This document shows, piece by piece, positions 29,762 through 47,127 of a stretch of DNA of 64,000 nucleotides. The notes under the pieces were generated by a model, which was given only the letters and a program-made list of their open reading frames with translations, did not search any database and was not told the origin of the DNA. This DNA is from a virus (taxonomy: Duplodnaviria > Caudoviricetes). Each line of letters opens with the position of its first letter. Position 1 is the stretch's first letter. Location: positions 937 through 64,936 of the IMG/VR virus record IMGVR_UViG_3300033064_000306; one strand, given 5' to 3'. The translations under genes were made by a program, and so were the position numbers.

Positions 29762-30139
29762 TCATTTCTCTTGTGCCTTTTCTTCAATAGCCCATAATAT
29801 TTCGTTGCAAGCATCTATCCAACCATCTGCATAAGTATCTTCATAAGATTTACATGGTGGAACATCATCGCTTTGAAAGTCTTTGATAATCTTGATGGCT
29901 TCTGTTAGTGTCTTTGTTTTTAATTTTTCAATCTCTTCACGCATCGTACCAATTACATAATCTGCGTTATCTAATAAAGCATCTACCTCTGATTTTGATG
30001 GTTTATATGGATGGGTGTAGAGTGGCATGGTAATTCCCATGTTATCCACTTTATTTTCTGAAACGCAATCGGCTAAATACAATGCCTCATCTTTGAATCT
30101 ATCCAAGTTAATCCACGCTACTGGTTCATTTGCGTTCAT
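29762..30139 (-). CDS. Small hypothetical protein (MNANE...KAQEK)
   Basis: ATGA overlap with the methyltransferase stop. Confidence 0.55.
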   Translation of the reverse strand: MNANEPVAWINLDRFKDEALYLADCVSENKVDNMGITMPLYTHPYKPSKSEVDALLDNADYVIGTMREEIEKLKTKTLTEAIKIIKDFQSDDVPPCKSYEDTYADGWIDACNEILWAIEEKAQEK

Positions 30140-30858
30140 TTGTACCATCCTTCGGGCATATGACGATCAGGTTTATCTAATACGTTTGGTTGATCTAATG
30201 GGTGTGGTAACTCATCAGCAAACCCTTCAGCATCAGCCCTATCTTTGCGCAACAACGTCAGTTCAAATACGCTGGGGAAAAAGACTTCATCGTACTGGAT
30301 GAATGGGCAGTTGTTGTTAGGATGGATATGAACTACATGAAAATCTTCCAACAACTTTGCAAAGAAAGTCTGCACCAAACCAAAAGCTATTGGATGAAAC
30401 CAATGTTGGGTATTGTGAACTTCAATAGCTATGATGCGAAATCTGTTTAAAGTATTGCGATCAGCAGCCAATATTGTTTCATATTCAGCGCCTTCAATAT
30501 CCATCTGCAGAATATAGCTGTCCATAAAGGCATGATGATCCGACATCCAGCTAATCAAAGTCATAGTTTGGTCAGTGTACAAACCACTTAAATGCTTTTT
30601 AGTAAATGAGGATACCTCTAATCCTTTTGGCACACCATCCACAGAGCCATCAGCCAAGTGTGAACGGATGCCACGGTTAAGTAAGTCTTGTTCAAAGCTG
30701 GCTGTAACATCAACACCTGGGGAGAAGCAGGCTGTAATGCCTTCTAAATCGTCAGGAAGCAGGTAACCACCATCGTTAGCGCCACCAACACGGATCAAGT
30801 TATACTTGGTCTTAACAGGGCGTAGCGATTTAATTATGGATTTTAATTTATCTTTCAT
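30136..30858 (-). CDS. FkbM-like SAM-dependent methyltransferase
   Basis: RVGGANDGGY, LQMDIEGAEY, IEVH, HIHPNN. Confidence 0.8.
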   Translation of the reverse strand: MKDKLKSIIKSLRPVKTKYNLIRVGGANDGGYLLPDDLEGITACFSPGVDVTASFEQDLLNRGIRSHLADGSVDGVPKGLEVSSFTKKHLSGLYTDQTMTLISWMSDHHAFMDSYILQMDIEGAEYETILAADRNTLNRFRIIAIEVHNTQHWFHPIAFGLVQTFFAKLLEDFHVVHIHPNNNCPFIQYDEVFFPSVFELTLLRKDRADAEGFADELPHPLDQPNVLDKPDRHMPEGWYK

Positions 30859-31709
30859 TTCACTATGCTCCTTACAAATTGAATTGCCCCATCGAGGCTA
30901 GGTTCTTTAGTTATCAAAGGTTGTGTGTATATATTTTCATACCATATTTCTTTGGTGTCGTAGTCTTTAATTGATTGCACAAGTTGTTTCATGTCTAAAT
31001 TTTCTTGATAATTAAAAAAAGCCTTTATATTAAATTCCCGTAGCACCGACATATCACCACTATATATAGGCACAGTTAATCCAGCATAGGCATCAATCAG
31101 CTTCTCAGTAATGTAGCCATCGTACACAGAGTTCTCAGGACAAAGGGAAAACTTGTAGTCCTTGAGCAGATCAAACTTTGAACCCCTCAATGCTTTACCA
31201 AACATGTTGCCATAGCCATCGACTTGTTTGTACTTTGATATGCTGTAAAATAGATTAATGCGTAGCCCTTCTGGGTTACCAGCGATAAGCGCACAAAACT
31301 TATCTTTGCCTGTTGTATCTAGCTTACGTGAGCGCATCAGGTTTTTAATATCAATCAATGGTTCGTAGCCATGATTATTACTACCAACACAACGTGGCTT
31401 CTCTTCAAACCCATCCCAAGCTAGCCTCGAATACCATAGTGGTAAGCGCACATTACGACCGCCGTAAGTATCATAGTCAAAAGACAAAGAGTGGTTGTAC
31501 CCAATATAGTTTGGACGAATGTTCTCACCGATGTAGGATAGCGTTTTAGTTGGGTCAGTTTGCACGTTTCCAAATACTGAAGTAACCACGAGATCAGCCT
31601 CGTGTGGGTTAGTAGTATAAGTAAGATCAGCAAAGCAACTGCGAAAGAAAAAATCAAAGAAATCCCCATCAAATGCTCCCTCCCAAAAGTTAGTTATACA
31701 CAACTTCAA
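30855..31709 (-). CDS. GT10 alpha-1,3-fucosyltransferase-like protein
   Basis: YKFSLCPENS..DGYITEKLIDAY..LTVPIY, the alpha-1,3-FucT signature. Confidence 0.85.
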   Translation of the reverse strand: MKLCITNFWEGAFDGDFFDFFFRSCFADLTYTTNPHEADLVVTSVFGNVQTDPTKTLSYIGENIRPNYIGYNHSLSFDYDTYGGRNVRLPLWYSRLAWDGFEEKPRCVGSNNHGYEPLIDIKNLMRSRKLDTTGKDKFCALIAGNPEGLRINLFYSISKYKQVDGYGNMFGKALRGSKFDLLKDYKFSLCPENSVYDGYITEKLIDAYAGLTVPIYSGDMSVLREFNIKAFFNYQENLDMKQLVQSIKDYDTKEIWYENIYTQPLITKEPSLDGAIQFVRSIVK

Positions 31710-32268: not shown

Positions 32269-32936
32269 CTGTAGTTTCCTTTTCCGTTATGTTCGCAGTC
32301 CTTAACAGCACAGAACTTGCGACAAGTAAAATTTGGTTTAGCGTTCCACACACCGTTTTCATGGGCAGCTTCTAGCTTATCTGTTTCTGTAATCCAAGCC
32401 AGCCACTTCTCATGGGCTTCATATTTTGTAAAGTTGGCTTTAATGAAGTCATCGCAAACCAAAAAGGCTAGCCCTGTGCGTGCTCTCTCAACCATAGGAA
32501 AGTGTTTGAACACCGCCAAAGCCATGAGTTCTAACTGCTTGGTGTCAGCATACTGAGCAGATTTGCCTGTTTTGTAGTCAATAATGTGGGCAACCTGATC
32601 GTTAATAATTAGCAAGTCGGCTATGCCTCGATACCAAACGTCTTTGTCAAAAAACCCACATGGCTCTAAATCCTCGGTTAGACCCATCTTGTATTCACAA
32701 TGCTTTTGGCCAGGGATACCTTTAAGAACATCCAATACTGGAATAATGAATGCAAACTTCTCCGGTACAGGTGTATTGCTTCCAATGTAATCTTCGGCGG
32801 CTTTGTGTACCATTTCACCATAAGTAATAGCGTCGGTTTTAGGCTCAACAATATCCTTGACTACTCGTAGGTGGTAGTACTTGCGTGGGCATTGTTGGAA
32901 TAAGCCAAGCCCTGAGTATGACCAAGTGATGCTCAT
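32265..32936 (-). CDS. Cas4-like PD-(D/E)XK exonuclease
   Basis: WSYS...CPRKY, GIADLL, IIDYKTGKS, C-terminal CRKFCAVKDC. Confidence 0.85.
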   Translation of the reverse strand: MSITWSYSGLGLFQQCPRKYYHLRVVKDIVEPKTDAITYGEMVHKAAEDYIGSNTPVPEKFAFIIPVLDVLKGIPGQKHCEYKMGLTEDLEPCGFFDKDVWYRGIADLLIINDQVAHIIDYKTGKSAQYADTKQLELMALAVFKHFPMVERARTGLAFLVCDDFIKANFTKYEAHEKWLAWITETDKLEAAHENGVWNAKPNFTCRKFCAVKDCEHNGKGNYR

Positions 32937-33109
32937 TCTTCTATCCTTATCCATGTTTTAACTGCACCTGACATCAAACGCATTTCAGTTTGTGCATTTA
33001 AACAATGCTCATACGCTATTTGAAAGTTATTCCTAACCAATGCGTCATGTGCCAACTTAATTTCCTTAAGTGCTTCTAAATACAATGTCGAATATTCAAT
33101 CTTATCCAT
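32933..33109 (-). CDS. Small hypothetical protein
   Basis: Coupled between polymerase and nuclease genes. Confidence 0.5.
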   Translation of the reverse strand: MDKIEYSTLYLEALKEIKLAHDALVRNNFQIAYEHCLNAQTEMRLMSGAVKTWIRIEE

Positions 33110-34941
33110 TACAAATTCCATTCCTCAATAGCTTTTTTCTTACTGCAATCACCGTAGGATGTACCTACTCCAAGTTCGCAAGTCAATGGAAGTTCTTGAG
33201 CCCACTTAGGTCTCCATTTCATGCACTCGTCAATATACACCATAGCATTATCTTGTTCTTCTTCACGCACTATTGCCATGACTGCGTCGTGTACTGTTAA
33301 TGCAACTCTGTAACGCTTGGCTATACGGAGCATCTGTTCACCAATAATGCACCGTGCTAGGGCTTGGCATAGGTTCTCTACTACCTTACCCCCATAAATC
33401 TTTATTCTTCCACGGCGACTAGCGTAGCTAAACTGTCCTTCTGAGTCTTGTTGGAGGTCTGAATAGTTAAGGTAGAGACCGCTTGGCAATAAGAAACCAT
33501 TCTCCGTAAGGGTAAGTGCCTGCGGTTGACACCCCACTTGCGCAGTTTGTTTATTTCTGAGGGCTTCGAGGGAACTATTAGCTTCTTTCCAAAGTCGGGG
33601 AATGAAAGGGTATCTAGATCTGTAGACATCAATAATCCTAGTCGCTTCCGCATCAGGGATTTCCACCCCAAAAGTTCGTAGTTGTACCCCAAACTTGGTA
33701 GAACCCATGCCATACCCCGCACCGAGGATTGTCGTCTTACCCACAAACCTTTCTCCCGCATCGATCTGCATTTCCTCCTTGCCGTATATAGCAGAAGCCA
33801 TGATTTTGTACACATCTTCTTTCCTCTCAAACGCATCAACTAAGTCGTTTTGTCCACTAAGCCAAGCAACTGTTCTTGCTTCAATTTGTGAACTATCTGC
33901 ATCAATGAGAACGAATCCAGTTGGGGCGACGATGGATTCTTTAAGTAAAGATTTTCTAGGCAGGTTTTGAAGGTTGAGTTTGTCGTCACCACCCCAGCGT
34001 CCAGTATGGGCGGCGTAGTAGCGAAGAGGGACAGGCATCGTTCCTCGTTTAGAGATGTTAATAAATCGCTCGGTTCGGGTTTCTTCAAGGGTGCTCTTAG
34101 TTCCCAATCTAGCGGCGACAACCGCTTGGACACGCTCATCGGGATGGTCTGCCAAAGCTTTGAACCCTTCATCCGACTTTGCAAAGGCATAAGTTTGTTT
34201 ACCATTAGCAGGGCTCTCTTTCATAGGGGGTTCAACACCAAGACTAATTAGTAGTTCAGCTAACTTGGGGTTACTCATCAATGTATCTTTATCTGATATG
34301 CAAGCATCAAGTAACTTTTCTTTACGTGCCTTGACTTGCATCAGATGTTGTTCTAATAGGGGTGTGTCTAGCCGTAGTGTTGGCTCTGAGAACATACGAA
34401 TGGTCAGGTCAATTAACTTTAGTTCTGATCGGCTAAAGCGTTGTGCAAGCAACTGAAATAGGTCATAGGTTAGCTTGACATCGTTCTTGCAATATTCACC
34501 GTACTGTGCCAACTGTGCCTTAGAAAAGTCAGCTCTGCGTAGTCCCTTCGCATCTATTACTTCAGAACCCTTTGTTCCTAACGAATACCGGGAAGCCAGC
34601 TTAGCTAAACTATTACCAGCTTCTAGCCCATCAGTAGCCCTAGCCATACCTAATGTATCTAGCCAAGCCATAGGCTTAATATCAAATACCCAACTAAGAA
34701 TAGCTGAGTCGAACAGGGCATTGTGTGCCAAAGCAAAGCTGGTCTCCCAATCAAATTGCTCTAGCCATGCCTTTGTTTCCTCGAAATTACCTGAGAACCA
34801 TTGGGCTGGTTCGTCGTTATTGGATACAGAAACTCCTATGACCTCGAAGCGATCATCACGAACATACTCTTCAGTTGTTAGCTTGGACAAGCTAAATTGC
34901 TGATCATAATAAGTTTCAAAGTCAATCGTAAAAGTATTCAT
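33109..34941 (-). CDS. polA: DNA polymerase family A with 3'-5' exonuclease
   Basis: DFETY, AHNALFD, motif A DSSQIEAR, motif B RFVGKTTILGAGYG, motif C VHDA. Confidence 0.93.
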   Translation of the reverse strand: MNTFTIDFETYYDQQFSLSKLTTEEYVRDDRFEVIGVSVSNNDEPAQWFSGNFEETKAWLEQFDWETSFALAHNALFDSAILSWVFDIKPMAWLDTLGMARATDGLEAGNSLAKLASRYSLGTKGSEVIDAKGLRRADFSKAQLAQYGEYCKNDVKLTYDLFQLLAQRFSRSELKLIDLTIRMFSEPTLRLDTPLLEQHLMQVKARKEKLLDACISDKDTLMSNPKLAELLISLGVEPPMKESPANGKQTYAFAKSDEGFKALADHPDERVQAVVAARLGTKSTLEETRTERFINISKRGTMPVPLRYYAAHTGRWGGDDKLNLQNLPRKSLLKESIVAPTGFVLIDADSSQIEARTVAWLSGQNDLVDAFERKEDVYKIMASAIYGKEEMQIDAGERFVGKTTILGAGYGMGSTKFGVQLRTFGVEIPDAEATRIIDVYRSRYPFIPRLWKEANSSLEALRNKQTAQVGCQPQALTLTENGFLLPSGLYLNYSDLQQDSEGQFSYASRRGRIKIYGGKVVENLCQALARCIIGEQMLRIAKRYRVALTVHDAVMAIVREEEQDNAMVYIDECMKWRPKWAQELPLTCELGVGTSYGDCSKKKAIEEWNL

Positions 34942-35255
34942 CTATAGGGTTTATACCTATTTTGAATCATAAGTAACTGTTGAGCCTTCAGCCCCTTTAT
35001 TGTTGTTGAACCAAACGGATTGTCCAAGTCATCTTCTTTTTCGTCGGCGGTCATGGTTTGCATAACGGCTAAAGTAAACTCTTCCTTGCGAATTTCTTTT
35101 ATACGGTCAAAAATCATACCTTTTTCGGCTTCGGACATTGCATCACGAAAGTATTCTTTGTAGATAAACTTCCACTTATTATTGTCACCATAAAATTCTT
35201 CGGGGTGCGTAGCCATCCGAGCTAGCACAATTTCAACTCCTGAGTTCATTGGCAT
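34938..35255 (-). CDS. Hypothetical protein
   Basis: Coupled ORF upstream of the polymerase. Confidence 0.55.
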   Translation of the reverse strand: MPMNSGVEIVLARMATHPEEFYGDNNKWKFIYKEYFRDAMSEAEKGMIFDRIKEIRKEEFTLAVMQTMTADEKEDDLDNPFGSTTIKGLKAQQLLMIQNRYKPYR

Positions 35256-35282
35256 CCTTTTTTTTAGGAAACTGGTCCGATA

Positions 35283-35573
35283 TCAGCAACGGTCGTCCTC
35301 TAAATATTCTTTGAGTTTGTTTATATTTTCTTCGTTGATAACAAAAGTCTCGCCTCCTGCATCACGGATGCGTTTTAGTTCTCGTTCTTGGAGTGCGGTG
35401 GTCTTGCCTTTGATGGTCTTGCACTCAATCGCAATGAACAGGGAGTTGAGGCAACATATAATGTCAGGCACACCTGACTTACCAAAGCCATGCGTAGCTG
35501 GAAAAAAGTAGTACACATTGTGTAACTTCAATAGCTTAACAACTGCGGCTTTAACCTTAGCTTCGGGCTTCAT
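35283..35573 (-). CDS. VRR-NUC / Holliday-junction-resolvase-like nuclease
   Basis: PEAKV...GVPDII...IECK...TALQ. Confidence 0.8.
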   Translation of the reverse strand: MKPEAKVKAAVVKLLKLHNVYYFFPATHGFGKSGVPDIICCLNSLFIAIECKTIKGKTTALQERELKRIRDAGGETFVINEENINKLKEYLEDDRC

Positions 35574-35607
35574 TTACTTTCCTTATGTTACTGCTTATTA
35601 TTGACAC

Positions 35608-35635
35608 AGTATAGTCCTTAGCCAGACGAAAGCAA
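35608..35635 (-). promoter_or_regulatory. Sigma70-like promoter for the replication operon
   Basis: TTGCTT-N16-TATACT, downstream of the early terminator. Confidence 0.5.
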
Positions 35636-35710
35636 GTGATTCTGGAAAATTATTTTATAGGGATAAACACCTAGAAAAGACAAAGTGTCACTATGCCACT
35701 TTGTCCCAAT

Positions 35711-35732
35711 AAAAAAGCCACCCGAAGGTGGC
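35711..35732 (-). terminator. Intrinsic terminator ending the early operon
   Basis: GCCACC-TTCG-GGTGGC-TTTTTT. Confidence 0.88.
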
Positions 35733-35744
35733 TTAGTAGGCTAA

Positions 35745-35814
35745 AGTATATTCCGCATCCTACTTGCGTTAGAGGGGAGATTGTGGCTTTCGCCTCACCT
35801 ACCTAACATATACT
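35745..35814 (-). ncRNA. Candidate structured RNA
   Basis: Nested helices and a GGC-GAAA-GCC tetraloop in a non-coding gap. Confidence 0.35.
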
Positions 35815-35848
35815 AGGCTTTAGTAAGTGCAATCAGGAAAACATAATT

Positions 35849-36760
35849 CTACTGCGTAGTGGTATCTCTTTCTACTATGAATAACATATCACCTCTAAAC
35901 TTGCAACCTAGATTAGAGTAAGGCTCATCTTGGTTTATTACCTTGAACATTGCCACCTTTTCACGAATAGCTTGAGGCACTTCCTCCAACTCTTTATACT
36001 TCTTAAGCGTCTGAGTAGCGTAACTATATATAGCTAGACTACCATTACTAAATATAGATACCGCATAGCCTTTGCCTGACTTCTTATGCTCTACTAAGTC
36101 ATTGGCTTCGTCCCATTCGTTGCATAGCTTCTCATGCTTCTCCAACTTACTAGCTACTGACTGAGGAATAGCGGGCAATGTAACTGTATCTATGCCTGCT
36201 TTTCTAGCCTTGTATGCACTAAGCACGTACCCCATGACTTCGTCTTCTGTGTTTACATCATATTTAATATACGAGTAGGCTTGCCTTTCCAAGTCCCTAA
36301 GTTGGTTATCGACCTGACCCTTGATTAAGCCAATGAGTTCTTCGTTCTGCCTGTTAACAAACACCTTCTTAACTGTGCGTAGTGCCACCTTGATGTTCTT
36401 GGTGTAAGTGCTTTCAGGATTACCTCGTTCTTTGCTAATGCGAAAACTCTCTACACCATATACCCATTCTTTATTACCACGAGAGTATCTCTCAGTAACA
36501 GACAAGCCACCCAAGCGTTCGCCGTCTTGATAGACATTAACATAATAAATCTCGGCTTTGTTGTTTCGCTCCATCTTAGTCCCACCCTTGCCATCATCAA
36601 CCTCTTCATAGTTATGGTTGATGCTGACGGAATTCTCTTCTGCCTTGAACTCGCATAGTGGTTTTAGTAATGACACTTGTTCTACAAAACTTTCAAGGTC
36701 GTTTCTAAATGGTGCGTTGCGATACTCTGCCTTGACACCGCTTTTGTCTATGTTAACCAT
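35849..36760 (-). CDS. Early hypothetical protein
   Basis: 303 aa; AGGAGG RBS. Confidence 0.7.
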   Translation of the reverse strand: MVNIDKSGVKAEYRNAPFRNDLESFVEQVSLLKPLCEFKAEENSVSINHNYEEVDDGKGGTKMERNNKAEIYYVNVYQDGERLGGLSVTERYSRGNKEWVYGVESFRISKERGNPESTYTKNIKVALRTVKKVFVNRQNEELIGLIKGQVDNQLRDLERQAYSYIKYDVNTEDEVMGYVLSAYKARKAGIDTVTLPAIPQSVASKLEKHEKLCNEWDEANDLVEHKKSGKGYAVSIFSNGSLAIYSYATQTLKKYKELEEVPQAIREKVAMFKVINQDEPYSNLGCKFRGDMLFIVERDTTTQ

Positions 36761-36769
36761 ACTTCCTCC

Positions 36770-37639
36770 TTAGAAATCAAACTTACTTAAGATAGCGTCG
36801 ACCTTCATCTTGACCGCTTCTCTAGCATTACTGTTATCACGCAGACTGTCGAGGTCGTGGTGGGCGATAGCTGACTGCAAGTCTTTGCGTGCTTGCTCTA
36901 GCTTGGGGTCTTGTGTGATGTTCAAGTGCTTCAGCATATCCACTAACTCCACGCTATTCTCTACTAAGGAGTCACGGAATATTTTTCGTGAGCCGTCGGC
37001 ATTGTCAGTCAACCTTTCGCTTGTGCGGGTTAAGCACTCATGCAATCTACTCCATGCTTCACGCATAGCGTTGTTCAACCTATCTTCGTAGGCGGTGTTG
37101 CAGTTAGCCATAATCTCCGCTTTGGATTCCTCGTTGATGTCGATACGGAAGTCGCCTGCGGTGGGGACAGGAAAGAAACTATATGTGAACTTGAACTTCT
37201 TCTTTAAGCTGTCCTCATTCGGGTATTCGTTTCTGTCGAATAGGTCACCAAGTTGAAAGGCAGCCGCACTTACTAGAGTTGGATACGACTCGATGAACTT
37301 ATCTACTAATGCGTCGTAGTTCTCCTCTAACTTGTTGAGTTGCTCCTTGTAGTTCATGAAGTTAGACATGGGCAACAAGCGTGAGCCGTTGTCAGTCCAC
37401 GGCAGGGTTTGAGAAAGATGCCATGCTCTAGCATTAGCCGCATACTTGACGAGGTTCTCTAACACCCCTGTGCCTGCCATCAGGTTCTTGTTAGCATTGA
37501 CCACCTTGGTCTTTGTCCCCTTGGCTAAGTCAACCTCTGTTGATACACGCTTATCCAATTTCCTAGCAGTCCATGTGCTGATGGATAGCTCGACGAGCAT
37601 CGCTGATGATGCAATTGAAATACTGTTATTCAGTTCCAT
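36770..37639 (-). CDS. Early protein, possibly DUF3150-like
   Basis: Start MELNN after a GAGGA RBS; WTARKLDK...TLPW...F.PVP pattern; next to AAA/VWA genes. Confidence 0.55.
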   Translation of the reverse strand: MELNNSISIASSAMLVELSISTWTARKLDKRVSTEVDLAKGTKTKVVNANKNLMAGTGVLENLVKYAANARAWHLSQTLPWTDNGSRLLPMSNFMNYKEQLNKLEENYDALVDKFIESYPTLVSAAAFQLGDLFDRNEYPNEDSLKKKFKFTYSFFPVPTAGDFRIDINEESKAEIMANCNTAYEDRLNNAMREAWSRLHECLTRTSERLTDNADGSRKIFRDSLVENSVELVDMLKHLNITQDPKLEQARKDLQSAIAHHDLDSLRDNSNAREAVKMKVDAILSKFDF

Positions 37640-37904
37640 TTGATTCCTCTTCGGTTGGTTGGGACATAGTGTCACCTTGACACTTTGTCCGTTGGTTGTA
37701 AAACTTTACAAGGTGTTGGATTGCTTGAGAATAGGTTAAGTTAAAGCCCATCTCTACACCCATCTTGTTTTTAATAGTGACTAACATCTCAACTGTTTCG
37801 GGGTTGAGACTAATGTTAATCTTGCCATCTTTCACTCTGCCTTTCGGCACTTTAGTTTTGATAGGGTCGTTCATACCGCCGTATCCTTCTTCGATTATTT
37901 GCAT
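37626..37904 (-). CDS. Possible ribbon-helix-helix DNA-binding protein
   Basis: AAGGAG RBS; KINISLNPETVEML...TYSQAIQHLV. Confidence 0.45.
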   Translation of the reverse strand: MQIIEEGYGGMNDPIKTKVPKGRVKDGKINISLNPETVEMLVTIKNKMGVEMGFNLTYSQAIQHLVKFYNQRTKCQGDTMSQPTEEESNGTE

Positions 37905-37914
37905 TTGATTCTCC

Positions 37915-39153
37915 TTATTCGACATGAACAATTTTGCCAACGGGTGCGTCAGCACTACTAAAGCGACTATTACCTTTGATGCACCACAACACAGGAGCAG
38001 ATAGAGTCCAATTACTTGGGTCTTGTTGCCCGATGTATCCGTCGGTCAGCATGATTAAACACTCAGGCTTGATGTTGTGCTTCTCCATAAACTTAGGCAC
38101 GCAAGCTGGCTCAGTCCCCCCACCACCCGCAGGCTTTGTGCTTTCGGTTAACCCTGAAAGTTCGTTCTCCATATATGTTTCTCTAGAAGCAACATGGGTA
38201 TCCCAATACAGTAGGTCAATGACTTCGGGTGATACCTCTTCGCAGATAGACTTAACCTCTGATAAGAATTGATTTAGTTCTGCCGAACCAATCGAACCCG
38301 ATGTGTCAATAGCGATTGCGATACCACCTACCTTTTCAGAATAGGATGAGGGCATAATTATATCGGCAGCAAGATAACGCTTATGCAGTCGTCGCCATGT
38401 AGATTGGTCTTTACCTTGCGTCATCGACTTAACGAAATCACGCAACGCTTCCTTCCAATCAATCTTGGGAACAAGCATATCTCCAATCTCACGACTGACA
38501 TTACCACCTAGCTTACCTACAAGAATAGAACCCTGACGCAACGCTGACTCGACTTCTTTAGCGATAGCTTCTTTCTCTTCGGTAGACATTTCTTTAGCAC
38601 CATCCCAATCATGCTCGTCAAAACCTTTGCCTTCACCTTTGATTGGATTATCACCATCACCACCACTACCACCTCCACCGCCACCACCACCTTCTTCCTT
38701 CTCTTTCTCTAGCAGTAGAAAGATTTGGTGTGAGTCCATACCTCGATACTTCTCGTCGATTAGACCTAGCACATTACCTAGTTCGTCGGTAGGCATTTCA
38801 GTATCGTTTTCATGAGGGTCATAGTCACGGATTTGCAGGTTAATCACATAATCGCAAGCCATATTAGCCAACTGTGCGTTCTTCTTATGCAACTTCTCCC
38901 ACACTACCAAGTGACGATAAGCCTTGTGCATATTCTCGTGCAAGATAAGGAAAGCCAACTGCTTGTCGTTCAAGCTGTCTACAAACTTACGACCATACCG
39001 AACATCAAGTCCGTTGGTGCAAGCAGTAGCTACATTGTCCTCGACTGTGACTTTGCCAATCATGAACAAGCCTGAGAACAAGCAATAGTTCTTGTGCTTC
39101 ATTAACTGCACATGACAACGCTCAATGCGTTGCTCTGCTGATAATCTACTCAT
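37915..39153 (-). CDS. Metallopeptidase-like + VWA domain protein (DUF2201 type)
   Basis: HENMH (HExxH); MIDAS DTSGS; GGGT; LTDGY. Confidence 0.85.
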   Translation of the reverse strand: MSRLSAEQRIERCHVQLMKHKNYCLFSGLFMIGKVTVEDNVATACTNGLDVRYGRKFVDSLNDKQLAFLILHENMHKAYRHLVVWEKLHKKNAQLANMACDYVINLQIRDYDPHENDTEMPTDELGNVLGLIDEKYRGMDSHQIFLLLEKEKEEGGGGGGGGSGGDGDNPIKGEGKGFDEHDWDGAKEMSTEEKEAIAKEVESALRQGSILVGKLGGNVSREIGDMLVPKIDWKEALRDFVKSMTQGKDQSTWRRLHKRYLAADIIMPSSYSEKVGGIAIAIDTSGSIGSAELNQFLSEVKSICEEVSPEVIDLLYWDTHVASRETYMENELSGLTESTKPAGGGGTEPACVPKFMEKHNIKPECLIMLTDGYIGQQDPSNWTLSAPVLWCIKGNSRFSSADAPVGKIVHVE

Positions 39154-39163
39154 ATAAATCTCC

Positions 39164-39394
39164 TTAGTTCCATCTTAGTTTTGGACAATCAGGGGCAGTG
39201 TTTCTACCCCTACGCACACATAGTGTGTCTGCAATTAAGTCTTTTAAGCCATGACGCATACAATCTAGTCGTCTGTCCATCTTGGCATAAAGGCTTTCAC
39301 GCAAATCACCATTGGTTCTACTAATACGCTTGACCTTGTGCAAACCCCTACGCTTCCACATACGCTCAAGTGCTACGCTTACTCGCTTAGTCAT
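39164..39394 (-). CDS. Small basic hypothetical protein
   Basis: Likely start MTKRVS with a GGGGGA RBS. Confidence 0.45.
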   Translation of the reverse strand: MTKRVSVALERMWKRRGLHKVKRISRTNGDLRESLYAKMDRRLDCMRHGLKDLIADTLCVRRGRNTAPDCPKLRWN

Positions 39395-39405
39395 ATATCC
39401 CCCTA

Positions 39406-40500
39406 TCAAAATAAATATTGGTGTTTGGTCATCCAATCAACAAAGGATTGGTGTGTAAGGAATAGCTTTTTCTTGTCGTCATCCTTCAAGCCTGTAAGAC
39501 AAAATACCGATTGCAACTCTGTCGGTGTCCGCTTGAGGTATTCAAAGAACTTGCCGATGGTTTGGCGGTCGATACGCTGAACTGCACTAAACGCAAGCAA
39601 GCACAATGCAGTCGGACTTGATGGGACAATGGCGGTGTTTGGGTCTTTGATAATTGACTCCCATGTCGGCAAACTATCCGCTACTTCTACGAATGACATC
39701 AAGTCACGAGCCGCTGGTGCTCCAATCGTGCCTTCTAGCGCACAAAGGGTTGCGTTGTCAGTTACCTTGTTGCGCCCATTAAGAATATTACTTGCTCTAG
39801 CAAGGGAACGAGGGGAAACAAAAGACTTCTGCGCTTCCTTTGGGTTGAAGATATATTTATTACCCTCTTGACTTGGCTCAAGATAAGATGCCAACGCTTG
39901 AGGTGTTTGCTTAATCCACGCAAGGACTTCGGGTGCGATGTTATTACGCAATGCCCAATGACCCCATGAGTTGTCGTCAACTGAACCATCAGGATTAAAG
40001 CCTGCGTGTGGTTTCTTAATATTAATTACGGATAAACGATTACGGGAATGGCTCATCATGTTATCGCCTACCCCGTCGGTGGTGTAGTTACCCGCCGTTA
40101 TCACTATCGTATCCTTGTGCAAGGGGATACCCATAATCATGCGTGGCTCGTTAAGCATTGGATGCAACATATTCTTAACTGATTGATGACCCTTAGTAAA
40201 CTCATCGCAAAAGATAACGAGTGGCTCTTTCAGATGAAAACCCCATTGTTCGTTGGGGTAAATCTTGGTGGTTTTGGTTTCGTGGTTGGGGATTGGGATA
40301 CCTAGTTCACCCAACTCTACATTTGGTACATCGATATAGATGCCTTTATAGCCAGTTCTTTCTACAATGTTCTTGAACATTGAGGTTTTGCCTACCCCTG
40401 GCTCACCCATAAGGTGAAAGGTTACACCAGCACCATGTGTTACTACGGAATCCTCTGCTTCTTTGAGGGTTACGCTACGATTTAATAAAACTTGAGACAT
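39406..40500 (-). CDS. MoxR-like AAA+ ATPase
   Basis: GEPGVGKT, FCDEF, TAGN, SPRS. Confidence 0.85.
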   Translation of the reverse strand: MSQVLLNRSVTLKEAEDSVVTHGAGVTFHLMGEPGVGKTSMFKNIVERTGYKGIYIDVPNVELGELGIPIPNHETKTTKIYPNEQWGFHLKEPLVIFCDEFTKGHQSVKNMLHPMLNEPRMIMGIPLHKDTIVITAGNYTTDGVGDNMMSHSRNRLSVINIKKPHAGFNPDGSVDDNSWGHWALRNNIAPEVLAWIKQTPQALASYLEPSQEGNKYIFNPKEAQKSFVSPRSLARASNILNGRNKVTDNATLCALEGTIGAPAARDLMSFVEVADSLPTWESIIKDPNTAIVPSSPTALCLLAFSAVQRIDRQTIGKFFEYLKRTPTELQSVFCLTGLKDDDKKKLFLTHQSFVDWMTKHQYLF

Positions 40501-40553
40501 ATTATATTTCCTTATTAGTTAGTTATTATTTGGGACAAAGTGTCACTATGACA

Positions 40554-41507
40554 CTATGTCCTTTGTTGCGAAAAATACTTCTTGTTATCGTCATGGAACA
40601 TAGACCCAACTTCCTGTTCTTCAACAGTAAATACTTGGTCACGATATTCATGCTTTAACACTTCACTAAAGAACCTCTTAAACCTAGCGGGTGTGCATTC
40701 AATCTTCTGCGACCGATAGGTAAACTCTCCACCACTACACGCTACATAGGTTGCGAGTTCATACAGAAGGGTCAAGTCCCCAGATTCGCTGAACTTATCC
40801 AATGCTAGAAAAAGCTTTGTTCGGTTCTCGATATCAGGGTTCTTCCTCTCCCAATTAACAAATGGTATGAGTGATGTATCTTTAAAGGTCAGACCATGAC
40901 TAGCTTCAGCCACCTCTATCCTCTCAATATACGGACTCATGCCTAGCATCGTCGCACCATAGTCAATAAATAACTTATACTTCTTGCGTAGTGCATTAAG
41001 TTCTTTGCGGTTGGCTTTATATCTTTTCTCTTTGACTACATTCTCGGCTACATACACTTCACCTTCTTTAACTAGCACGAGTCCGTTGTCCATCAAAAAG
41101 TTCTTGCCCGCCTTGTTGACAAAATACCATTTACCTTTGACCGAATCGATAGTCCCAAGCTGTGCTAACGAATAGGTAAAAAACTGTAACATCGATGGGT
41201 TATGCCAATGGGAGTTCCTTACTTTTATCTTGCCATCAGGAAAGAACTCGATATCGTTGTCACGGTAGAAAGAATACGAATAGGTATCGATGAATGTGCC
41301 GAGTGGGTTGTCCACGCCGCCCTCTACGCTTAACCTATTCTTGTAAATACGAAACCATGTATAGCGACGATTCTTGCCCAATGGTCTGCACTCAGGTGTC
41401 CGACCACGAATAGGGATTACCTTATCGTAGTAAGCCTTGACTTCCTCGTAGGTTGCCAAGGCAGGGATGCCTGCCGAGTTATATGGAGTGTACCCCCATC
41501 CCATCAT
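40554..41507 (-). CDS. Early hypothetical protein
   Basis: 317 aa; GGAGG RBS; stop codon lies inside a palindrome. Confidence 0.7.
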   Translation of the reverse strand: MMGWGYTPYNSAGIPALATYEEVKAYYDKVIPIRGRTPECRPLGKNRRYTWFRIYKNRLSVEGGVDNPLGTFIDTYSYSFYRDNDIEFFPDGKIKVRNSHWHNPSMLQFFTYSLAQLGTIDSVKGKWYFVNKAGKNFLMDNGLVLVKEGEVYVAENVVKEKRYKANRKELNALRKKYKLFIDYGATMLGMSPYIERIEVAEASHGLTFKDTSLIPFVNWERKNPDIENRTKLFLALDKFSESGDLTLLYELATYVACSGGEFTYRSQKIECTPARFKRFFSEVLKHEYRDQVFTVEEQEVGSMFHDDNKKYFSQQRT

Positions 41508-42226
41508 TTACCTCCAAACAATTTGGATTCGAGATAAGCTACTGTGGCACGCAAGTCCATGACTTCTTTCATTACTTCAGTCACTTCGCTAGTCACATTC
41601 CGTGTTCCGTAGGCTTTAGCTAGTGCGTCTTGCAATTCGCTAATCTGTTGTGCTTGCTTGCGAGCTTCGGTCTGCCACTCGACTACACGCTTCTCTAGAA
41701 ACTCAGCCGTATACAACGATGGTGGATTGTCAAACATATCAAACTGACGAGGGTCTTTGGCTACGGCTTTGCCCAATGACTTCGGATTGATAAACTTAGC
41801 TTTCTTACCACGATTAATCGGTGCAGGATTTTGCAAGATGCCACGCTTTTTAGCTTCTTCGCATGGGTAGAAACGAGTAATGCCTGACTGCGGATTAGTC
41901 TGTCTACCAATCAATCCACGAGAAACCCATCTACCTAGCTGAAGATTAACTAGCTTAACATTAGGTTCTTTGCAGTAGTTAGCTACGGCTTCTGCGGTGC
42001 GGTTGCCATTACTCAACGCACTCAAGATGCGGTCTTTCAATGGCTTGATGTGGTCAGGGTAGTTAAAGTTCACACCCTTCTGCTTACTTGATGCTTCAAC
42101 AGGCTGAACTTCCCTAGCTACCAGCTGACGAGGTGGGTAACGGAGTGACTCTATGTCCACTTGCGTTGGTTGATGATTTAACTGCTCTTTGAACAATCTT
42201 AATGCTTCTATGGCTTCGTTTTTCAT
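41504..42226 (-). CDS. Possible winged-helix protein with C-terminal coiled coil
   Basis: RILSALSNGNRTAEAVANY...VNLQLGRWVSRGLIGR. Confidence 0.5.
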   Translation of the reverse strand: MKNEAIEALRLFKEQLNHQPTQVDIESLRYPPRQLVAREVQPVEASSKQKGVNFNYPDHIKPLKDRILSALSNGNRTAEAVANYCKEPNVKLVNLQLGRWVSRGLIGRQTNPQSGITRFYPCEEAKKRGILQNPAPINRGKKAKFINPKSLGKAVAKDPRQFDMFDNPPSLYTAEFLEKRVVEWQTEARKQAQQISELQDALAKAYGTRNVTSEVTEVMKEVMDLRATVAYLESKLFGGK

Positions 42227-42285
42227 AATTGAAAATTTCCTATTTAAGTTGAATAACGGACTTAGTGTCACCATGACACTTTGTC

Positions 42286-43779
42286 CTACTTTGTAACCCA
42301 TAACACTAGTAATACAGGCACTATTGTTATGCCAATCACAACAGTCATGCCTTCCAACATTCCACGCATGAATTTAATCCCATACATGAAATCACTCTCG
42401 CACTTCCACAGTCCAGTTGCGTAGTCAGCATCTTTAAATGCTTCACTAGCACTCCGTGAGGTGCGACCAACATAGTGACGAACATCGCCAATGCCATCAA
42501 AGTTGTTATTACTGCGTAAGTCAAGGGCAATCACCGCAACCCCTGCTTTAATACTATTTAGCTTCTTCATTACTAATCTCCCGAAGTTGTGCTTCATGGT
42601 TCAACAACATTTCTTTGGTTTGCCACACCAACAGACGAGCATGGTCTTTGGTAATACCCTTTTGCAAGGCAAAGTCTAGGTTGCCTATCATGTTGTGAGT
42701 GTGAACTAACAAATCCGATATCGTCGGCTTTGGTTTAATCATATGTCCCCCTGTAATGCGGTTAGCTTGGCTTTCATGACGGCAAGCGTTGCTTCTGCTT
42801 CTATACAACGGAATATCTGCTCACCCTCTGCCGTCCCCTTGGTATGCTCAAGAACAGATTGAAGGTCAGCGATGTTCTTCAATAACTCGCTGATGCGTTG
42901 CCCTTTATACATTTCCCTACTCATACAAACTCCCTTATCCAATCGATATAAACTTCGTCAAAATAAAACCACCTAGCTTGTCGATTCCTATCAGGCACAT
43001 CAATAGGGTAATTAACTAGCAGAGCATGGCTGTCCCACCGAACCACCTTGTAGAACTCAGGCTTGTCAGGCTTGCGGTATAACTTAACTACCTTCATTTC
43101 CTTCTCCAAAAATCCTAGCATTAAAGCCCTCAAGAAAGCCATCAATAAAAGCATGACGAGCTTCGTTAATATAGGGTGCGTCTTTAGTGCCTACTTGCCC
43201 TGTGTGCGGGTCATACTCTTGCATCCAAATCCAACTGCGACTGACTGCAATTTCCATGATGGTTGCGGTCTTGTTTATGTTTTCGTAATCCTCTAATTTA
43301 CCCATCATGTTGTCCTCTTTGGGTTAGTAAAACGCAAATCGTCAGGGTTGTGAATATATTGGTAAGCACCTTTGGAATAAGGAATCTGAACCATGCTTGC
43401 TTTACGCTTGGACTTAGCTACGGCTATCTTGTCGCCACACTTCATACAAGTCAACGGCTTGGACTCGTTGATTAGAAACTGAGCACGCTTGCCGTTCACA
43501 TACACTTGGCAATCCTTGGCGGTGTTGGCTACGCAAAAGTAGCGGTGCGACTCGTGGCTCATATTACGGACTTGTGTATTCATATCGTATTCTCGTATAT
43601 AGGTTGATTGGGACATAGTGTCAGAGTGACACTTCGTCTTTGGTTTGGATACTAGCGAGGTTGATTGCTTCCATCGTTTCCTTGGCGAGTGCAAGGTTTT
43701 CTGCGGTTGGATACTTGAGGCAAAGCATGAATAGCTTTTGGAGTGTGCCTGCTACTTGTGCTTGTTCTTTACTTGTCAT
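42286..43779 (-). CDS. Run of seven small coupled early ORFs (42286-42570, 42554-42742, 42739-42924, 42921-43097, 43084-43308, 43305-43583 Cys-rich, 43621-43779)
   Basis: Overlapping stops/starts and RBS-like GGAG/GGGG/GAGG sequences; functions unknown. Confidence 0.55.
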
Positions 43780-43858
43780 ATAAATCTCCCTTGATTGGGA
43801 CAAAGTGGCATGATGACACTTTGTCGGTTGCATGTTGTAGGCGAATTCCCACTCTATT

Positions 43859-43887
43859 AGTATAACACATTTAGTGGTAAATGTCAA
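43859..43887 (-). promoter_or_regulatory. Near-consensus sigma70 early promoter
   Basis: TTGACA-N17-TATACT. Confidence 0.88.
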
Positions 43888-44041
43888 GGACTTGTCCTGT
43901 AGTTATAGTGTTGCTTGGCTTTATTGCGTGGCTTACGCATCGTGGAATTCCCCTAGTGCGTCGCCCCATCGAGCCAGTTCCCGACCTCAAAATAAAAAGA
44001 AAAAGGACAAAGTGTCAAGCTGACACAATGTCCTAGGCAAT

Positions 44042-44063
44042 AAAAAAGCCCACCTAAGTGGGC
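44042..44063 (-). terminator. Intrinsic terminator
   Basis: GCCCAC-TTAG-GTGGGC-TTTTTT. Confidence 0.85.
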
Positions 44064-44083
44064 TTAAAGGGTTAAGGGGTTAA

Positions 44084-44665
44084 TTACATACCTAGCAATT
44101 CTTGGTGAATACGAGTGAGTAAACTAAAATCCTCGCACTTACCCAAGCACTCACGAATCTCCTTGCGGATTGCGTTGAGTTGCTCCTTAATATCATTACC
44201 CGCCTCTTTTTGACGCAACTCCAACTCCTTGCCCAACTTCTTGGCTTCGTCAATACGCTTCAAAGTGGGTTGAGCCAAGAGGTGAGCCATCTCCGCTTGC
44301 AATTCCTCATCGGCTTTGTCTTCGAACACTTCACGCACTTTTGCCCTTTGCTCGGCTTTTTTCTTGGCTTGCGGGTCATCACTAACAGGGATAGTGATAG
44401 CAGATTCTTTACAAACACGAGACCACTTCGTTTTGATAGCATCTGCGGATTTGCCAGCTTGCTCAAGGGTTTCAACAAAGATAATGCGACCCATCGAGTA
44501 ACGAGCCCAAGACGGCTTAGCGCCCAATACACGAGCAATGGTTGAAATGGCTTCTACAACTGTTTCTTCGCCATCATTCATCGCTAAGGAAGCGGACACC
44601 AACTGGGCATCTTCTTGCTCGTTAAACTGCTCGAGCATTTCTGCGGTTTTGACTACTGATTTCAT
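44084..44665 (-). CDS. Early helical protein, paralog of 45238-45870
   Basis: Own promoter, GGAG RBS and terminator. Confidence 0.75.
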   Translation of the reverse strand: MKSVVKTAEMLEQFNEQEDAQLVSASLAMNDGEETVVEAISTIARVLGAKPSWARYSMGRIIFVETLEQAGKSADAIKTKWSRVCKESAITIPVSDDPQAKKKAEQRAKVREVFEDKADEELQAEMAHLLAQPTLKRIDEAKKLGKELELRQKEAGNDIKEQLNAIRKEIRECLGKCEDFSLLTRIHQELLGM

Positions 44666-44758
44666 AACAATCTCCATAGAGTGAGGTTTAGGGTTTGGGA
44701 CATTGTGTCACTCTGCCACTTTGTCCTTTGCTACATATGGGCGAATTCCCACTCTATT

Positions 44759-44787
44759 AGTATACCACCCTTGATGGGATTTGTCAA
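44759..44787 (-). promoter_or_regulatory. Near-consensus sigma70 early promoter
   Basis: TTGACA-N17-TATACT; shares a 25-bp identical block with the 43859 promoter. Confidence 0.88.
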
Positions 44788-44801
44788 GGGTTTGTCCCAT
44801 C

Positions 44802-45095
44802 TGTTCTAGATTATGGGGGTAATGTTCTGTAATGTTCTATATGGTCGGAACACTCTCTAGCCCTTGTTCTATATGGTTAAGAGGGCTATATAAGTATAAT
44901 GTTCTATTGTTCTATATATGTCCAAAACACTTTTTGAGTTTAAAACTTGCACCGAGTGGGGGGCTCTTTGCTCCTTGACTTTTTAAAAAATCAGAATGGA
45001 GATGTTGGAACATTTAGAACATTTAGAACAATATAGCTAAGTGCTTGATTACATTTGGTTTCTTCTGTTCTATTCGGTAGAACATTACAAGAACA
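44802..45095. repeat. Cluster of 13 TGTTCY/RGAACA hexamers (iteron-like) with an IHF consensus site at 45038-45050
   Basis: Direct reading; AATCAAGCACTTA on the - strand matches WATCAANNNNTTR. Confidence 0.7.
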
Positions 45096-45180
45096 AAGCA
45101 AGACATAGTGGCATGATGACACTTTGTCCATCGGGCTAGTGCGTCGCTTACAACCAGTTCCCTATTATTTTTAACTGGAC

Positions 45181-45209
45181 AAAAAAATCCCCTGGGGTTA
45201 GCCAGGGGA
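45181..45209 (-). terminator. Intrinsic terminator with a CCWGG in each stem arm
   Basis: TCCCCTGG-N6-CCAGGGGA-TTTTTTT. Confidence 0.85.
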
Positions 45210-45237
45210 ATGAAGTAATACTATGCCGACAGATTAA

Positions 45238-45870
45238 TTACAGTCCGGCTACCTGGTAATCATAATCATTAAATATTGCTAGAGCAGCATTTAATGTATC
45301 CTCTTCCAGGCAATTCTTAGCTGCCTTAGCCACTTCGGACTGTAATGCTTTAATGATTTCCATTCTATCTTTCAGCACCAGGGCACGTTTATCCTCAATA
45401 ACAGCAGCTACCTTAGCAGCCTTAGCCAGGTTAGATTTAGTAGCGTTAGCTGTAAGCATAGATACTTCAGCCTGGAGCTCTTCAAAACTGCGCTCCATTT
45501 GTACAGCCTTTTGGGTAGCAGCCTTAGCTCTCTGATCGGCTTTAGCCTGGCTGTCTTTAGCTTTACTAGCTGGTTTAGACAGGCCGTACATCTCTTCAAG
45601 CCTAGCTGTAAATCTTTTCCACATAGATTTAATAGTATCACTATCCAGGCTTACACCTTTTTTAGTAGCGTATGCTGTTTTAACTACCTGGCTACCTTCC
45701 GCCCAGGTATCATAGTCTGTTACATCAATACCATCAGCATCCTGGACGGTTACGTTCCTGGCAAACTGTTCGATAGCATCATCAGCATCTACTTCGGCTA
45801 CTGCAAACATCGTCCCGATATCCTGGAAGGATATGTTTAATTCTTCTGACAATTGGAAGTTATTTTCCAT
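45238..45870 (-). CDS. First early gene; helical protein encoded by CCWGG-saturated DNA
   Basis: 210 aa; AGGGGA RBS; monocistronic. Confidence 0.75.
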   Translation of the reverse strand: MENNFQLSEELNISFQDIGTMFAVAEVDADDAIEQFARNVTVQDADGIDVTDYDTWAEGSQVVKTAYATKKGVSLDSDTIKSMWKRFTARLEEMYGLSKPASKAKDSQAKADQRAKAATQKAVQMERSFEELQAEVSMLTANATKSNLAKAAKVAAVIEDKRALVLKDRMEIIKALQSEVAKAAKNCLEEDTLNAALAIFNDYDYQVAGL

Positions 45871-45928
45871 TTTAGTTCCCCTGTATTAGGTTAGTTATCC
45901 AGGCTGCACCTTGCTACCTGGTCATTAC

Positions 45929-45957
45929 ATTATACACCCGGACTGATAGTTATCCAG
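45929..45957 (-). promoter_or_regulatory. Candidate promoter with perfect -10 and weak -35 overlapping CCWGG
   Basis: CTGGAT-N17-TATAAT. Confidence 0.45.
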
Positions 45958-46497
45958 GATATATCTTACTGGACATGGGAGCTATATAGAATAAGGCGCA
46001 GCCGACGGGTATCAAATTCACCAGGTAGCTAACCCACCATACCCCACCCCCCAAGATACAGATTAGGAGTCCCAGCAATGCAATATACACAGTGTTTTAC
46101 ACGGTACATCACATCAAAAATATTTTTAATAAATTCATAACTTAAGTGATGAAAACAACCCATTCTCTAGCATTATTTGTTATGTACTTATATTCACCAC
46201 TTATGACTCATCGCACATATAATTTTAAAAAAAGTTTATTTGCTAGGTAATCCCGGCCATCTAACTACATCCTATTCTCTAGTAGGGGGTATGATTATTC
46301 TCCTGGTAAGACGTTGTTAATTAACTACAGTAAGGGTACCCCCCTCTTTTATTTTGGGACTCCCCCCCCGGGGGGTATAAAAAAATTTATAATATTTTTA
46401 CTTAGTCACGTGAGTCGTGCTGGGGTGGGCACGAAGATTTACCACCCCACTAAAAAATAATATATACTCCAGCCATACAAACCTCCACTAAGGCTGT

Positions 46498-47127
46498 ATG
46501 CAAATACCGGTCGAACCAAATCTCGACGCACCTATCCCAGCGGGGGCCTATCCTCAAAGAGGGGATACTTATGAGCAGCGACTTAAGGTTGCTGGGAATA
46601 CTGCGCTCCTACTAAATGAACTCGGTGTAGAAGACGATATTCCTACAGATGAAGAAATTGCCCAAGCAAAAGAAATGTTTGAGGCAATTAGACCTGCGGA
46701 CGACAAAACATCTAAGCCTACTAAAGAAGAAACAAAAGCTCTTAAAAAAACTGGGCTAGCGTTAACCCTAGGTGGGTACATTAGTGAGTACGAGAAGCAA
46801 GTAGTCGCTGATAAAGTCCAAGTTAGAACAATTGTGGTTAATAGGTTGATGGAAATTAGCCAGACGGATGACGACAAAGTGGCTTTAAAGGCCCTCGAGT
46901 TGCTTGGAAAAGCGTCGGACCTGTTTACTGAACGTTCTGAAATCACTATTACCCACAAAACTAGCGATGAACTTAAGGCTGCTATTAAGGAACGCATCAA
47001 ATTACTTATGGGTCAGCCTATGAAAGACATCCCAAGTGCTACGGAGAAGCGGCTAAACCAGCTAAACCACAACCAAATGGAAATAATAGACGTTACAGCC
47101 CTTGAAAAAATTGAAGATGACGACTAA
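46498..47127 (+). CDS. Putative terminase small subunit
   Basis: Immediately upstream of terL; ALKALELLGK...LFTE. Confidence 0.6.
   Translation: MQIPVEPNLDAPIPAGAYPQRGDTYEQRLKVAGNTALLLNELGVEDDIPTDEEIAQAKEMFEAIRPADDKTSKPTKEETKALKKTGLALTLGGYISEYEKQVVADKVQVRTIVVNRLMEISQTDDDKVALKALELLGKASDLFTERSEITITHKTSDELKAAIKERIKLLMGQPMKDIPSATEKRLNQLNHNQMEIIDVTALEKIEDDD

Follow-up and report, generated by a model that had tools for sequence, protein, structure and literature searches.

Target sites of Type II restriction enzymes have been removed, by selection acting on DNA words, from one block of 10.3 kb (positions 34906-45190) in the genome of an uncultivated tailed phage (Duplodnaviria; Caudoviricetes). 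This selection is concentrated on the block, is still under way, changes quickly and acts on a set of motifs that differs by lineage, a conclusion that is well supported by the counts and comparisons given below. The genome is IMG/VR record IMGVR_UViG_3300033064_000306, a contig of 64,936 bp classed as linear and about 97% complete; positions 937-64936 of it, the 64,000 nucleotides analysed here, are called the window throughout. The best reading of the site desert is that a new phage clade avoids restriction sites in its leading region. In this reading the block is the early region, transcribed by the host RNA polymerase, and the lytic phage's genome of about 65 kb would enter the cell in stages or at the pace of transcription and be protected early. 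Taken as a whole we consider this explanation probable. The principle is already in print for T5 and Murciavirus, and the present clade is a new, unusually rich case.

Seven palindromes carry the finding. Together GATC, CCGG, GGCC, CGCG, ACGT, GTAC and GCGC occur nine times in the block (ACGT once, GTAC and GCGC four times each, the others never), compared with a mean of 147.1 (standard deviation 10.1, minimum 117) in 1000 codon-preserving shuffles that kept the protein sequences and the block's own codon usage and shuffled 83% of the bases. For each of the seven separately, where shuffling predicts 13-30 sites, none of the 1000 shuffles came down to the observed count. A Markov model predicts 30.9 GATC, 11.9 CCGG, 18.9 GGCC, 28.4 ACGT, 24.3 GTAC, 20.4 GCGC and 15.0 CGCG. 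GATC is absent over 10,632 bp (34902 to 45534), CCGG from 34588 to 45245 and GGCC from 32708 to 45582, with 108, 70 and 48 copies, respectively, in the whole window. A first-pass annotation of this DNA had described the span as lacking GATC, CCGG and GGCC and had proposed the shuffle as a check; the counts bear it out, the sites are not at background rate, and with four more palindromes involved the effect is stronger than it had stated. Its estimate of about 40 expected copies per four-letter word is higher than that of the Markov model, 12-31 per motif.

Two longer motifs follow the same trend. CCWGG occurs once against 8.0 by shuffle (1 of 1000 shuffles as low) and GCWGC twice against 7.7 (2 of 1000). 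The single CCWGG, at 40397 as annotated earlier, lies in codons P34-G35 of the Walker A motif (GEPGVGKT) of an ATPase gene. Control palindromes are found at shuffle expectation (AGCT 40 versus 40.2, TCGA 30 versus 32.4, CATG 48 versus 43.8, TGCA 42 versus 39.8, TTAA 63 versus 60.8), and when all four-letter words are merged by strand, the lowest relative to the shuffles are the depleted palindromes together with CCAG/CTGG (17 versus 51). Sliding a 10 kb frame along the sequence and counting six motifs gives a minimum of 9 sites (start 35001) and a median of 138; the poorest frame not overlapping the minimum holds 112.

Some further words behave in a regional manner. ACCGT/ACGGT and CASTG are low in the block of the window (3 versus 18 and 1 versus 11). 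The non-palindromic CCAG/CTGG is depleted clade-wide in early blocks in both orientations, with 0.9-5.2 per kb compared to 5.3-12.4 per kb in the structural flanks, and no single known target accounts for it. TCGA is relatively concentrated, 30 of its 86 sites in the window falling in the 16% of sequence that the block represents, and the same is seen in the near-complete related genomes G001 and G002.

The avoided sites come back from 45191 onward, in line with the earlier statement that they reappear right after 45190, and more than 500 sites of the avoided types sit elsewhere in the genome. Outside the block ACGT (184 versus 200), GTAC (251 versus 255) and GCGC (128 versus 117) match the Markov expectation, GATC (108 versus 150) and CCGG (70 versus 98) are mildly low, and GGCC (48 versus 121) and CGCG (0 versus 71) are avoided as well. 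The depletion is not genome-wide: it is confined to the block for ACGT, GTAC and GCGC and largely so for GATC and CCGG, while GGCC and CGCG are avoided beyond it too. CGCG is missing from the full 64 kb, where the Markov model predicts about 86 (71 outside and 15 inside the block). The motifs avoided genome-wide, CGCG and GGCC here and GATC in the near-complete relative G003, look like sites whose enzymes the early protection misses.

Relatives, for which the same test had been suggested, give the same picture with different words. An ATPase probe identified 34 viral-contig loci at 73-87% identity, all sharing the order TerL, terS, divergent point, early genes, g317, ATPase, VWA protein, g303 and polymerase; motif patterns were taken from the 23 loci whose early regions are distinct and cover at least 7 kb. 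The block is depleted in all 23, and these show 21 different patterns of total avoidance. CCGG (19 of 22), GGCC and CGCG (21 of 23 each) are avoided almost universally. Variable among lineages are ACGT (15/23), GCGC (12/23), GTAC (11/23), GATC (6/23), AGCT (3/23) and TCGA (1/23), along with CASTG and GGWCC, whereas CATG, CTAG, TGCA, TTAA, GANTC, CTNAG, GTNAC, ACNGT and GTSAC are avoided in no region. Combined site density falls in the same block in most relatives and recovers on the structural side. In L025-L028, L007 and L009 the six-motif depletion is weak or absent, yet CCGG, GGCC and mostly CGCG are missing there too. The structural-side flanks are near Markov expectation apart from lineages that avoid a motif genome-wide, such as L019 and L023 for GATC and a good many for CGCG. 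In the near-complete genomes G001, G002 and G003 the desert is one block of about 11 kb adjoining terS. It is cleared of ten motifs in G001 and mainly of CCGG and GGCC in G002; in G003 the CGCG and GGWCC deserts extend into the replication genes, to about 35 kb, and GATC is absent from all 60.7 kb.

The ATPase gene allows this change to be followed codon by codon. Compared with the gene of L007, the closest relative (87% amino acid identity), eight of nine GATC, GTAC and GCGC sites are lost synonymously in the window, and the comparison with L009 likewise gives eight of nine, the same amino acids being encoded by other codons. Lineage-specific motif sets, synonymous losses in the conserved ATPase and flanks near expectation together argue for selection on one region rather than a foreign insert, and selection limited to the block is what being exposed to restriction first predicts. 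The block thus has the features of sub-genomic early-region avoidance: motifs gone from it and present elsewhere, and selection at the DNA level that differs between lineages.

The edges of the desert are asymmetric. On the terS side they follow the terS start by about 1.7 kb or less (at most 2.3 kb for 57 of 58 values, 3.4 kb for the other), whereas the far edges reach to varying depths into the polymerase gene or past it (interquartile range +306 to +2114 bp), and eight further cases meet no site before the locus ends. The genes around the block are arranged on two strands (Table 1). Plus-strand structural genes run past the window end, resume at base 1 and finish with the gene of a 2072-residue protein. 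A divergent gap at about 45.9-46.5 kb separates them from the minus strand, which leads from an orphan gene through the block (44677 to 34938) to a family A DNA polymerase. Further along this strand, as far as 20404, come an exonuclease, clustered sugar-modifying enzymes, a helicase and a primase. In total 19 open reading frames, the 18 of the span and the adjacent orphan, were compared with PHROGs and 11 of them with Pfam. Among the block products, the family matches are the MoxR-type ATPase, the DUF2201 metallopeptidase/VWA protein, the VRR-NUC nuclease and, weakly, a DUF3150-like protein; the remainder are orphans.

The control elements at the terS-proximal end fit an early region. In the minus-strand reading the desert begins directly past the intrinsic terminator of the orphan gene, followed by a 26-nucleotide conserved element, a palindrome, an iteron array of 280 bp, promoter P1, a leader palindrome, the first early gene with its terminator, P2 and a long operon. 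Both promoters have an extended -10 region and are directed inward. Two such promoters matching 11 of 12 positions, mostly orphan genes, and replication genes following on the same strand agree with the earlier assignment of the span as an early region. Promoter conservation is only partial: G001 has no 11/12 match, G002 has one and G003 two, of which one lies at the entry edge and points inward.

Table 1. Features of the desert and its surroundings in the window
Feature	Position	Strand	Remarks
Probable terS	46498	+	
TerL	47102-48661	+	
Portal	48924-51425	+	Leads into structural genes
DarB-like/LPD39 'polyvalent' protein, 2072 aa	13937-20155	+	LPD39 domain and DarB-like (antirestriction PHROG) helicase-type region
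Orphan gene between terS and desert	45238-45870	-	Outside desert, rich in avoided sites
Intrinsic terminator of upstream orphan	45188-45209	-	
26-nt conserved non-coding element (GGAACTGG..GCGACGCACTAG)	45136-45161	-	Entry edge of desert
13-bp-arm palindrome (GGACAAAGTGTCA..TGACACTTTGTCC), copy 1 of 9	45102-45134		
13-bp-arm palindrome, remaining copies	44699-44731, 44006-44038, 43799-43831, 43612-43644, 42259-42291, 40534-40566, 37663-37695, 35679-35711		
Iteron cluster	44810-45090		ATTGTTC/ATGTTC and complements, both orientations
Early promoter P1	44759-44787	-	TTGACA, 17-nt spacer, TATACT, TG before -10; 11/12 sigma-70 matches
First early gene	44084-44677	-	Acidic helical protein, no family match; own promoter and terminator
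Intrinsic terminator after first early gene	44046-44065	-	
Early promoter P2	43859-43887	-	In 103-nt duplicate of P1 region; 11/12 sigma-70; heads long early operon
g317, conserved early gene	40554-41507	-	In 33/34 relatives; structure model with predicted local distance difference test (pLDDT) 87.6
MoxR-type AAA+ ATPase	39406-40500	-	AAA_5, phrog_1297
Putative metallopeptidase domain and VWA-like domain protein	37915-39153	-	DUF2201_N and DUF2201
DUF3150-like protein, weak	36770-37675	-	E 6e-4, below Pfam cut-off
g303, conserved early gene	35849-36760	-	Structure model pLDDT 90.5
Intrinsic terminator closing long early operon	35715-35734	-	
Small nuclease, VRR-NUC/Holliday-junction-resolvase type	35283-35573	-	Inside desert
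Family A DNA polymerase	33109-34941	-	Start codon is soft far edge of desert; first 2 kb still site-poor

Leading-region restriction avoidance would work as follows. Only the early block of an incoming genome would have to survive before phage-made protection exists, and this would be the reason for the desert. The DNA end adjoining the packaging genes would go in first, and host RNA polymerase would then transcribe from the strong inward promoters P1 and P2. The rest of the genome would enter later, or would meet restriction enzymes after early proteins had disarmed restriction or shielded the DNA. Late entry, or early disarming or shielding, would allow the hundreds of sites elsewhere to be tolerated, and the asymmetric edges, tight at terS and variable on the far side, fit a polar process from the terS side in which entry proceeds with a time lag. 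As a conjecture, a physical end near 45.1-45.2 kb would explain the site-rich orphan gene beyond the 26-nucleotide element and the iterons.

Known systems can be compared with this proposal. In T5, according to the available part of the preprint, EcoRI cuts only sites in the first-step-transfer DNA, a pre-early function protects the rest, and the pre-early genes are A1, A2 and dmp (bioRxiv 10.1101/866236). Like T5, the phage described here has a repeat- and palindrome-rich block of about 10 kb with orphan early genes for the host RNA polymerase; the T5 block leads entry, as the present one is proposed to do. Palindromes and iterons, which invite comparison with the T5 injection stop, are present, but the iterons lie at the entry-proximal end. 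As for differences, no product matches the T5 pre-early families in PHROGs or Pfam, and T5 has a genome about twice as large, with polymerase, terminase and structural genes unrelated to those found here. In place of a DnaA-box cluster the block contains one box with at most one mismatch to TTATCCACA, an E. coli-type consensus from which the host's own box may differ. Furthermore, up to ten motifs of 4-5 bp are cleared here, compared with the single EcoRI case studied in T5.

Similarly, the available text on Murciavirus (Autographiviridae) describes a Type I motif that matters only in the early-injected region, so that restriction acts as a sub-genomic filter (PMC12455610). In common with such T7-type phages, motifs are missing from the early region and present elsewhere, host promoters point inward at the edge, and the early region is hypervariable (PMC12455610). 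In contrast to them, the words are Type II-like 4-mers and not one bipartite Type I motif, packaging and structural genes occupy the plus strand and early and replication genes the minus strand instead of all genes sharing one strand, no Ocr-like family was found, and no T7-like RNA polymerase was detected (PF00940 was unmatched in four of four records and also in 14 control genomes; none of 39 open reading frames scanned matched an RNA polymerase PHROG). The same source cites work on conjugative plasmids, in whose leading regions restriction targets are scarce and anti-defence genes over-represented (cited in PMC12455610); plasmids enter as single-stranded DNA, unlike a tailed phage. A layout of the same kind is found in the distant cultured Rhizobium phage RHph_TM3_14A, which shares TerL, the divergent point, orphan early genes, the MoxR-type ATPase, the metallopeptidase/VWA protein and the family A polymerase (37% identical to that of the window; Pseudomonas phage KPP25 reaches 34%). 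It differs from the window in showing no regional depletion of any 4-bp palindrome, so the desert belongs to the uncultivated clade and not to the gene order.

That a cultured phage with the same gene order does without a desert also weighs against the proposed entry order, and further points do so. All five records with reported ends, the window contig and four relatives, are linear without end repeats, and the contigs of the window and of the three near-complete genomes end at different map positions. This leaves headful packaging as a possibility, and a circularly permuted, headful-packaged genome would undercut the entry-order explanation; as stated in the available part of the Murciavirus report, the sub-genomic filter would not apply to headful packagers (PMC12455610). 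The accessible text on the KPP25 group does not address genome termini (PMC13340246). Genome ends were also sought among the contig ends of relatives, which cluster near the borders of the block but also fall inside it and at non-homologous bases, and are thus not diagnostic. Another difficulty is the early-strand gene nearest to terS, which carries GATC, CCGG, GGCC, ACGT, GTAC, GCGC and many CCWGG sites; either the entering end lies beyond this gene, at around 45190, or the phage gained it recently, or something is missing from the model. Since the structural genes face the opposite way, transcription alone cannot pull the whole genome in. Finally, no known anti-restriction or defence family was recognized among the 19 open reading frames by PHROGs, Pfam or PADLOC.

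Other explanations of the desert deserve attention. The block could be, or lie within, a long direct terminal repeat collapsed by assembly, as in T5 (about 10 kb) or SPO1. This would be a specific version of the entry-order reading, with the desert as strict T5-type first-step-transfer DNA, rather than a contradiction of it. Its size (10.3 of 65 kb), orphan early genes, strong host promoters, repeats and palindromes do recall the left terminal repeat of T5 as described in the available part of the preprint (bioRxiv 10.1101/866236), and some contigs end near the borders, at 3.6-4.6 kb upstream (L010, L014, L024, L026) or 5.2-5.6 kb downstream of the ATPase (L012, L025, L029, L031, L035). However, contig ends are frequent inside the block too (six at +2.1 to +3.8 kb) and occur at non-homologous bases, as strain microdiversity would give. 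In addition, the far edge is soft and motif-dependent, a repeat boundary is unlikely at the polymerase start codon, with which the last gene of the desert overlaps, and the lone DnaA-type box and missing PHROG matches to T5 pre-early families count against this version too. Overall we judge a collapsed repeat unlikely. It is also conceivable that a phage-made hypermodification, for example of the sugar type, shields the rest of the DNA and that the early block, un- or less modified, relies on site loss. Tolerance to many enzymes at once is easier to explain in this way than by specific inhibitors, and three glycosyltransferase-like genes, a radical SAM/SPASM enzyme and an FkbM-type methyltransferase are encoded at 26878-31709. 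These enzymes could equally glycosylate the virion or host-surface molecules, though, it is not known how modification at replication could pass over a single 10 kb block, and avoiding CGCG and GGCC genome-wide would be needless under general protection, which makes this account quite unlikely.

A third possibility is that the block represents a mosaic module, recently acquired from a phage avoiding the sites genome-wide, so that it would reflect inherited history instead of local selection. The early accessory genes are indeed highly variable among relatives (g303 32-45% and g317 29-60% identity, versus 78-91% for TerL), and some lineages avoid a motif genome-wide, as G003 does with GATC. Such an origin is nevertheless very unlikely: all 23 distinct lineages are depleted in the same block between normal flanks, sites were lost synonymously within vertically conserved genes, and the GC content and codon usage of the block match those of the adjoining replication genes. 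Moreover, 21 patterns among 23 regions would require repeated independent change in any case.

How the remaining genome would be protected is a separate matter. The C5, N4/N6 and Dam-type methyltransferase families (PF00145, PF01555, PF02086) gave no match in any of five records, in searches whose controls matched, and the only methyltransferase domain seen is of the non-DNA FkbM type. With no DNA methyltransferase family present, self-methylation does not explain the sites tolerated elsewhere, and this tolerance needs post-entry protection, delayed entry or another DNA modification. Neither an Ocr-like family nor one of the T5 A1, A2 or dmp type was found among the 19 open reading frames. Candidates for a protecting function are g317, the MoxR ATPase, the VWA/metallopeptidase protein, the DUF3150-like protein, g303 and the 2072-residue DarB-like virion protein; from its sequence, the last is a candidate for a co-injected polyvalent protein. 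It is possible, though doubtful, that the clade-wide early genes among them (all but the virion protein) neutralise many Type II enzymes independently of sequence or gate the entry of the remaining genome. If so, the mechanism would be unrelated to Ocr, ArdA, Dar and T5 A1/A2, and the restriction repertoire of each phage's host could be read from the lineage-specific motif sets of early blocks.

Surveys of restriction-site avoidance usually count sites across entire phage genomes, and often judge the effect to be weak. The present clade indicates that selection can concentrate almost wholly on a tenth of a genome and on up to ten motifs at once, and that the avoided set can shift between relatives whose core proteins are about 80% identical. 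A literature search for restriction-site avoidance in a phage early region retrieved no paper under that description. The findings add support from natural populations, in a clade unrelated to T5 and T7, to the view of restriction as a filter on leading regions that is put forward in the available text of the Murciavirus study (PMC12455610). They also open a route to infer the entry polarity and host restriction repertoires of uncultivated phages from sequence alone. In addition, they provide a short list of conserved early genes, with folds that lack a known match, that could be searched for a broad anti-restriction or DNA-entry function; its T5 counterpart is described as still unidentified in the accessible parts of both sources (bioRxiv 10.1101/866236; PMC12455610).

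Structure comparison was applied to two of these genes. The AlphaFold models of g317 and g303 are confident but gave no Foldseek match in the PDB at E<=0.001, and a wide VIA-align search with g317 reached at best Z 4.8, to a retroviral matrix domain, with a root-mean-square deviation of 4.5 over 94 residues, which is within noise. Looking up the first early protein in the ESM Atlas returned scores all below 0.9 and no family; its true start is probably the ATG at 44665. For DUF3150 and DUF2201 the literature search found no paper on function. The orphan gene next to terS and the first early gene may be paralogues, since both products are acidic and helical and overlapping stretches of L025 and L027 are matched by both in tblastn. 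Past the terminator that closes the long operon, two small genes, one of them the VRR-NUC type nuclease, abut the polymerase start codon. The sugar-enzyme cluster in the replication module comprises GT2, GT10-like (fucosyltransferase-type) and Anp1-like glycosyltransferases besides the radical SAM/SPASM and FkbM-type enzymes, and could serve DNA hypermodification or the glycosylation of virion or host surface.

Several comparisons with other phages were set aside. Neither the block nor the structural region gave a Megablast match in a phage collection, and the marine phage 023Pt_psg01 (TerL 54% identical), whose gene order differs, was left out as a comparison genome. Stop-codon recoding was rejected as well, the in-frame stops in TerL of two relatives and in one alignment being over-extended match ends.

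The non-coding elements of the block show conservation of their own. Of 31 sequences examined, 15 have the 26-nucleotide element in the corresponding position, and it is nearly invariant although the neighbouring proteins are only 35-65% identical; a looser second copy lies at about 43953-43981. An iteron cluster (at least four per 250 bp) occupies the same place in 27 of the 31. The cluster could serve in packaging, as an origin of replication or as an array for protein binding, and together with the 26-nucleotide element it could form a packaging, replication-origin or entry-related site. All nine palindromes with 13-bp arms are situated at gene junctions and none occurs outside the block. 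Their positions are kept in L007, L019, L031, L032 and L040 (8-11 copies each), and in the variant of L025-L027 both arms have changed together, GTTACA replacing GTGTCA; they are probably operators of a dimeric regulator or RNA hairpins.

On the other side of the entry edge, 22 of the 58 CCWGG sites of the window are packed into the 1.1 kb at 45191-46302, which adjoins the desert and covers the orphan gene and its upstream region. This CCWGG island is found beside the desert in none of 24 relatives checked. In the relatives, assemblies break unusually often within the early block and at its borders, consistent with strong strain-level variability of the block.

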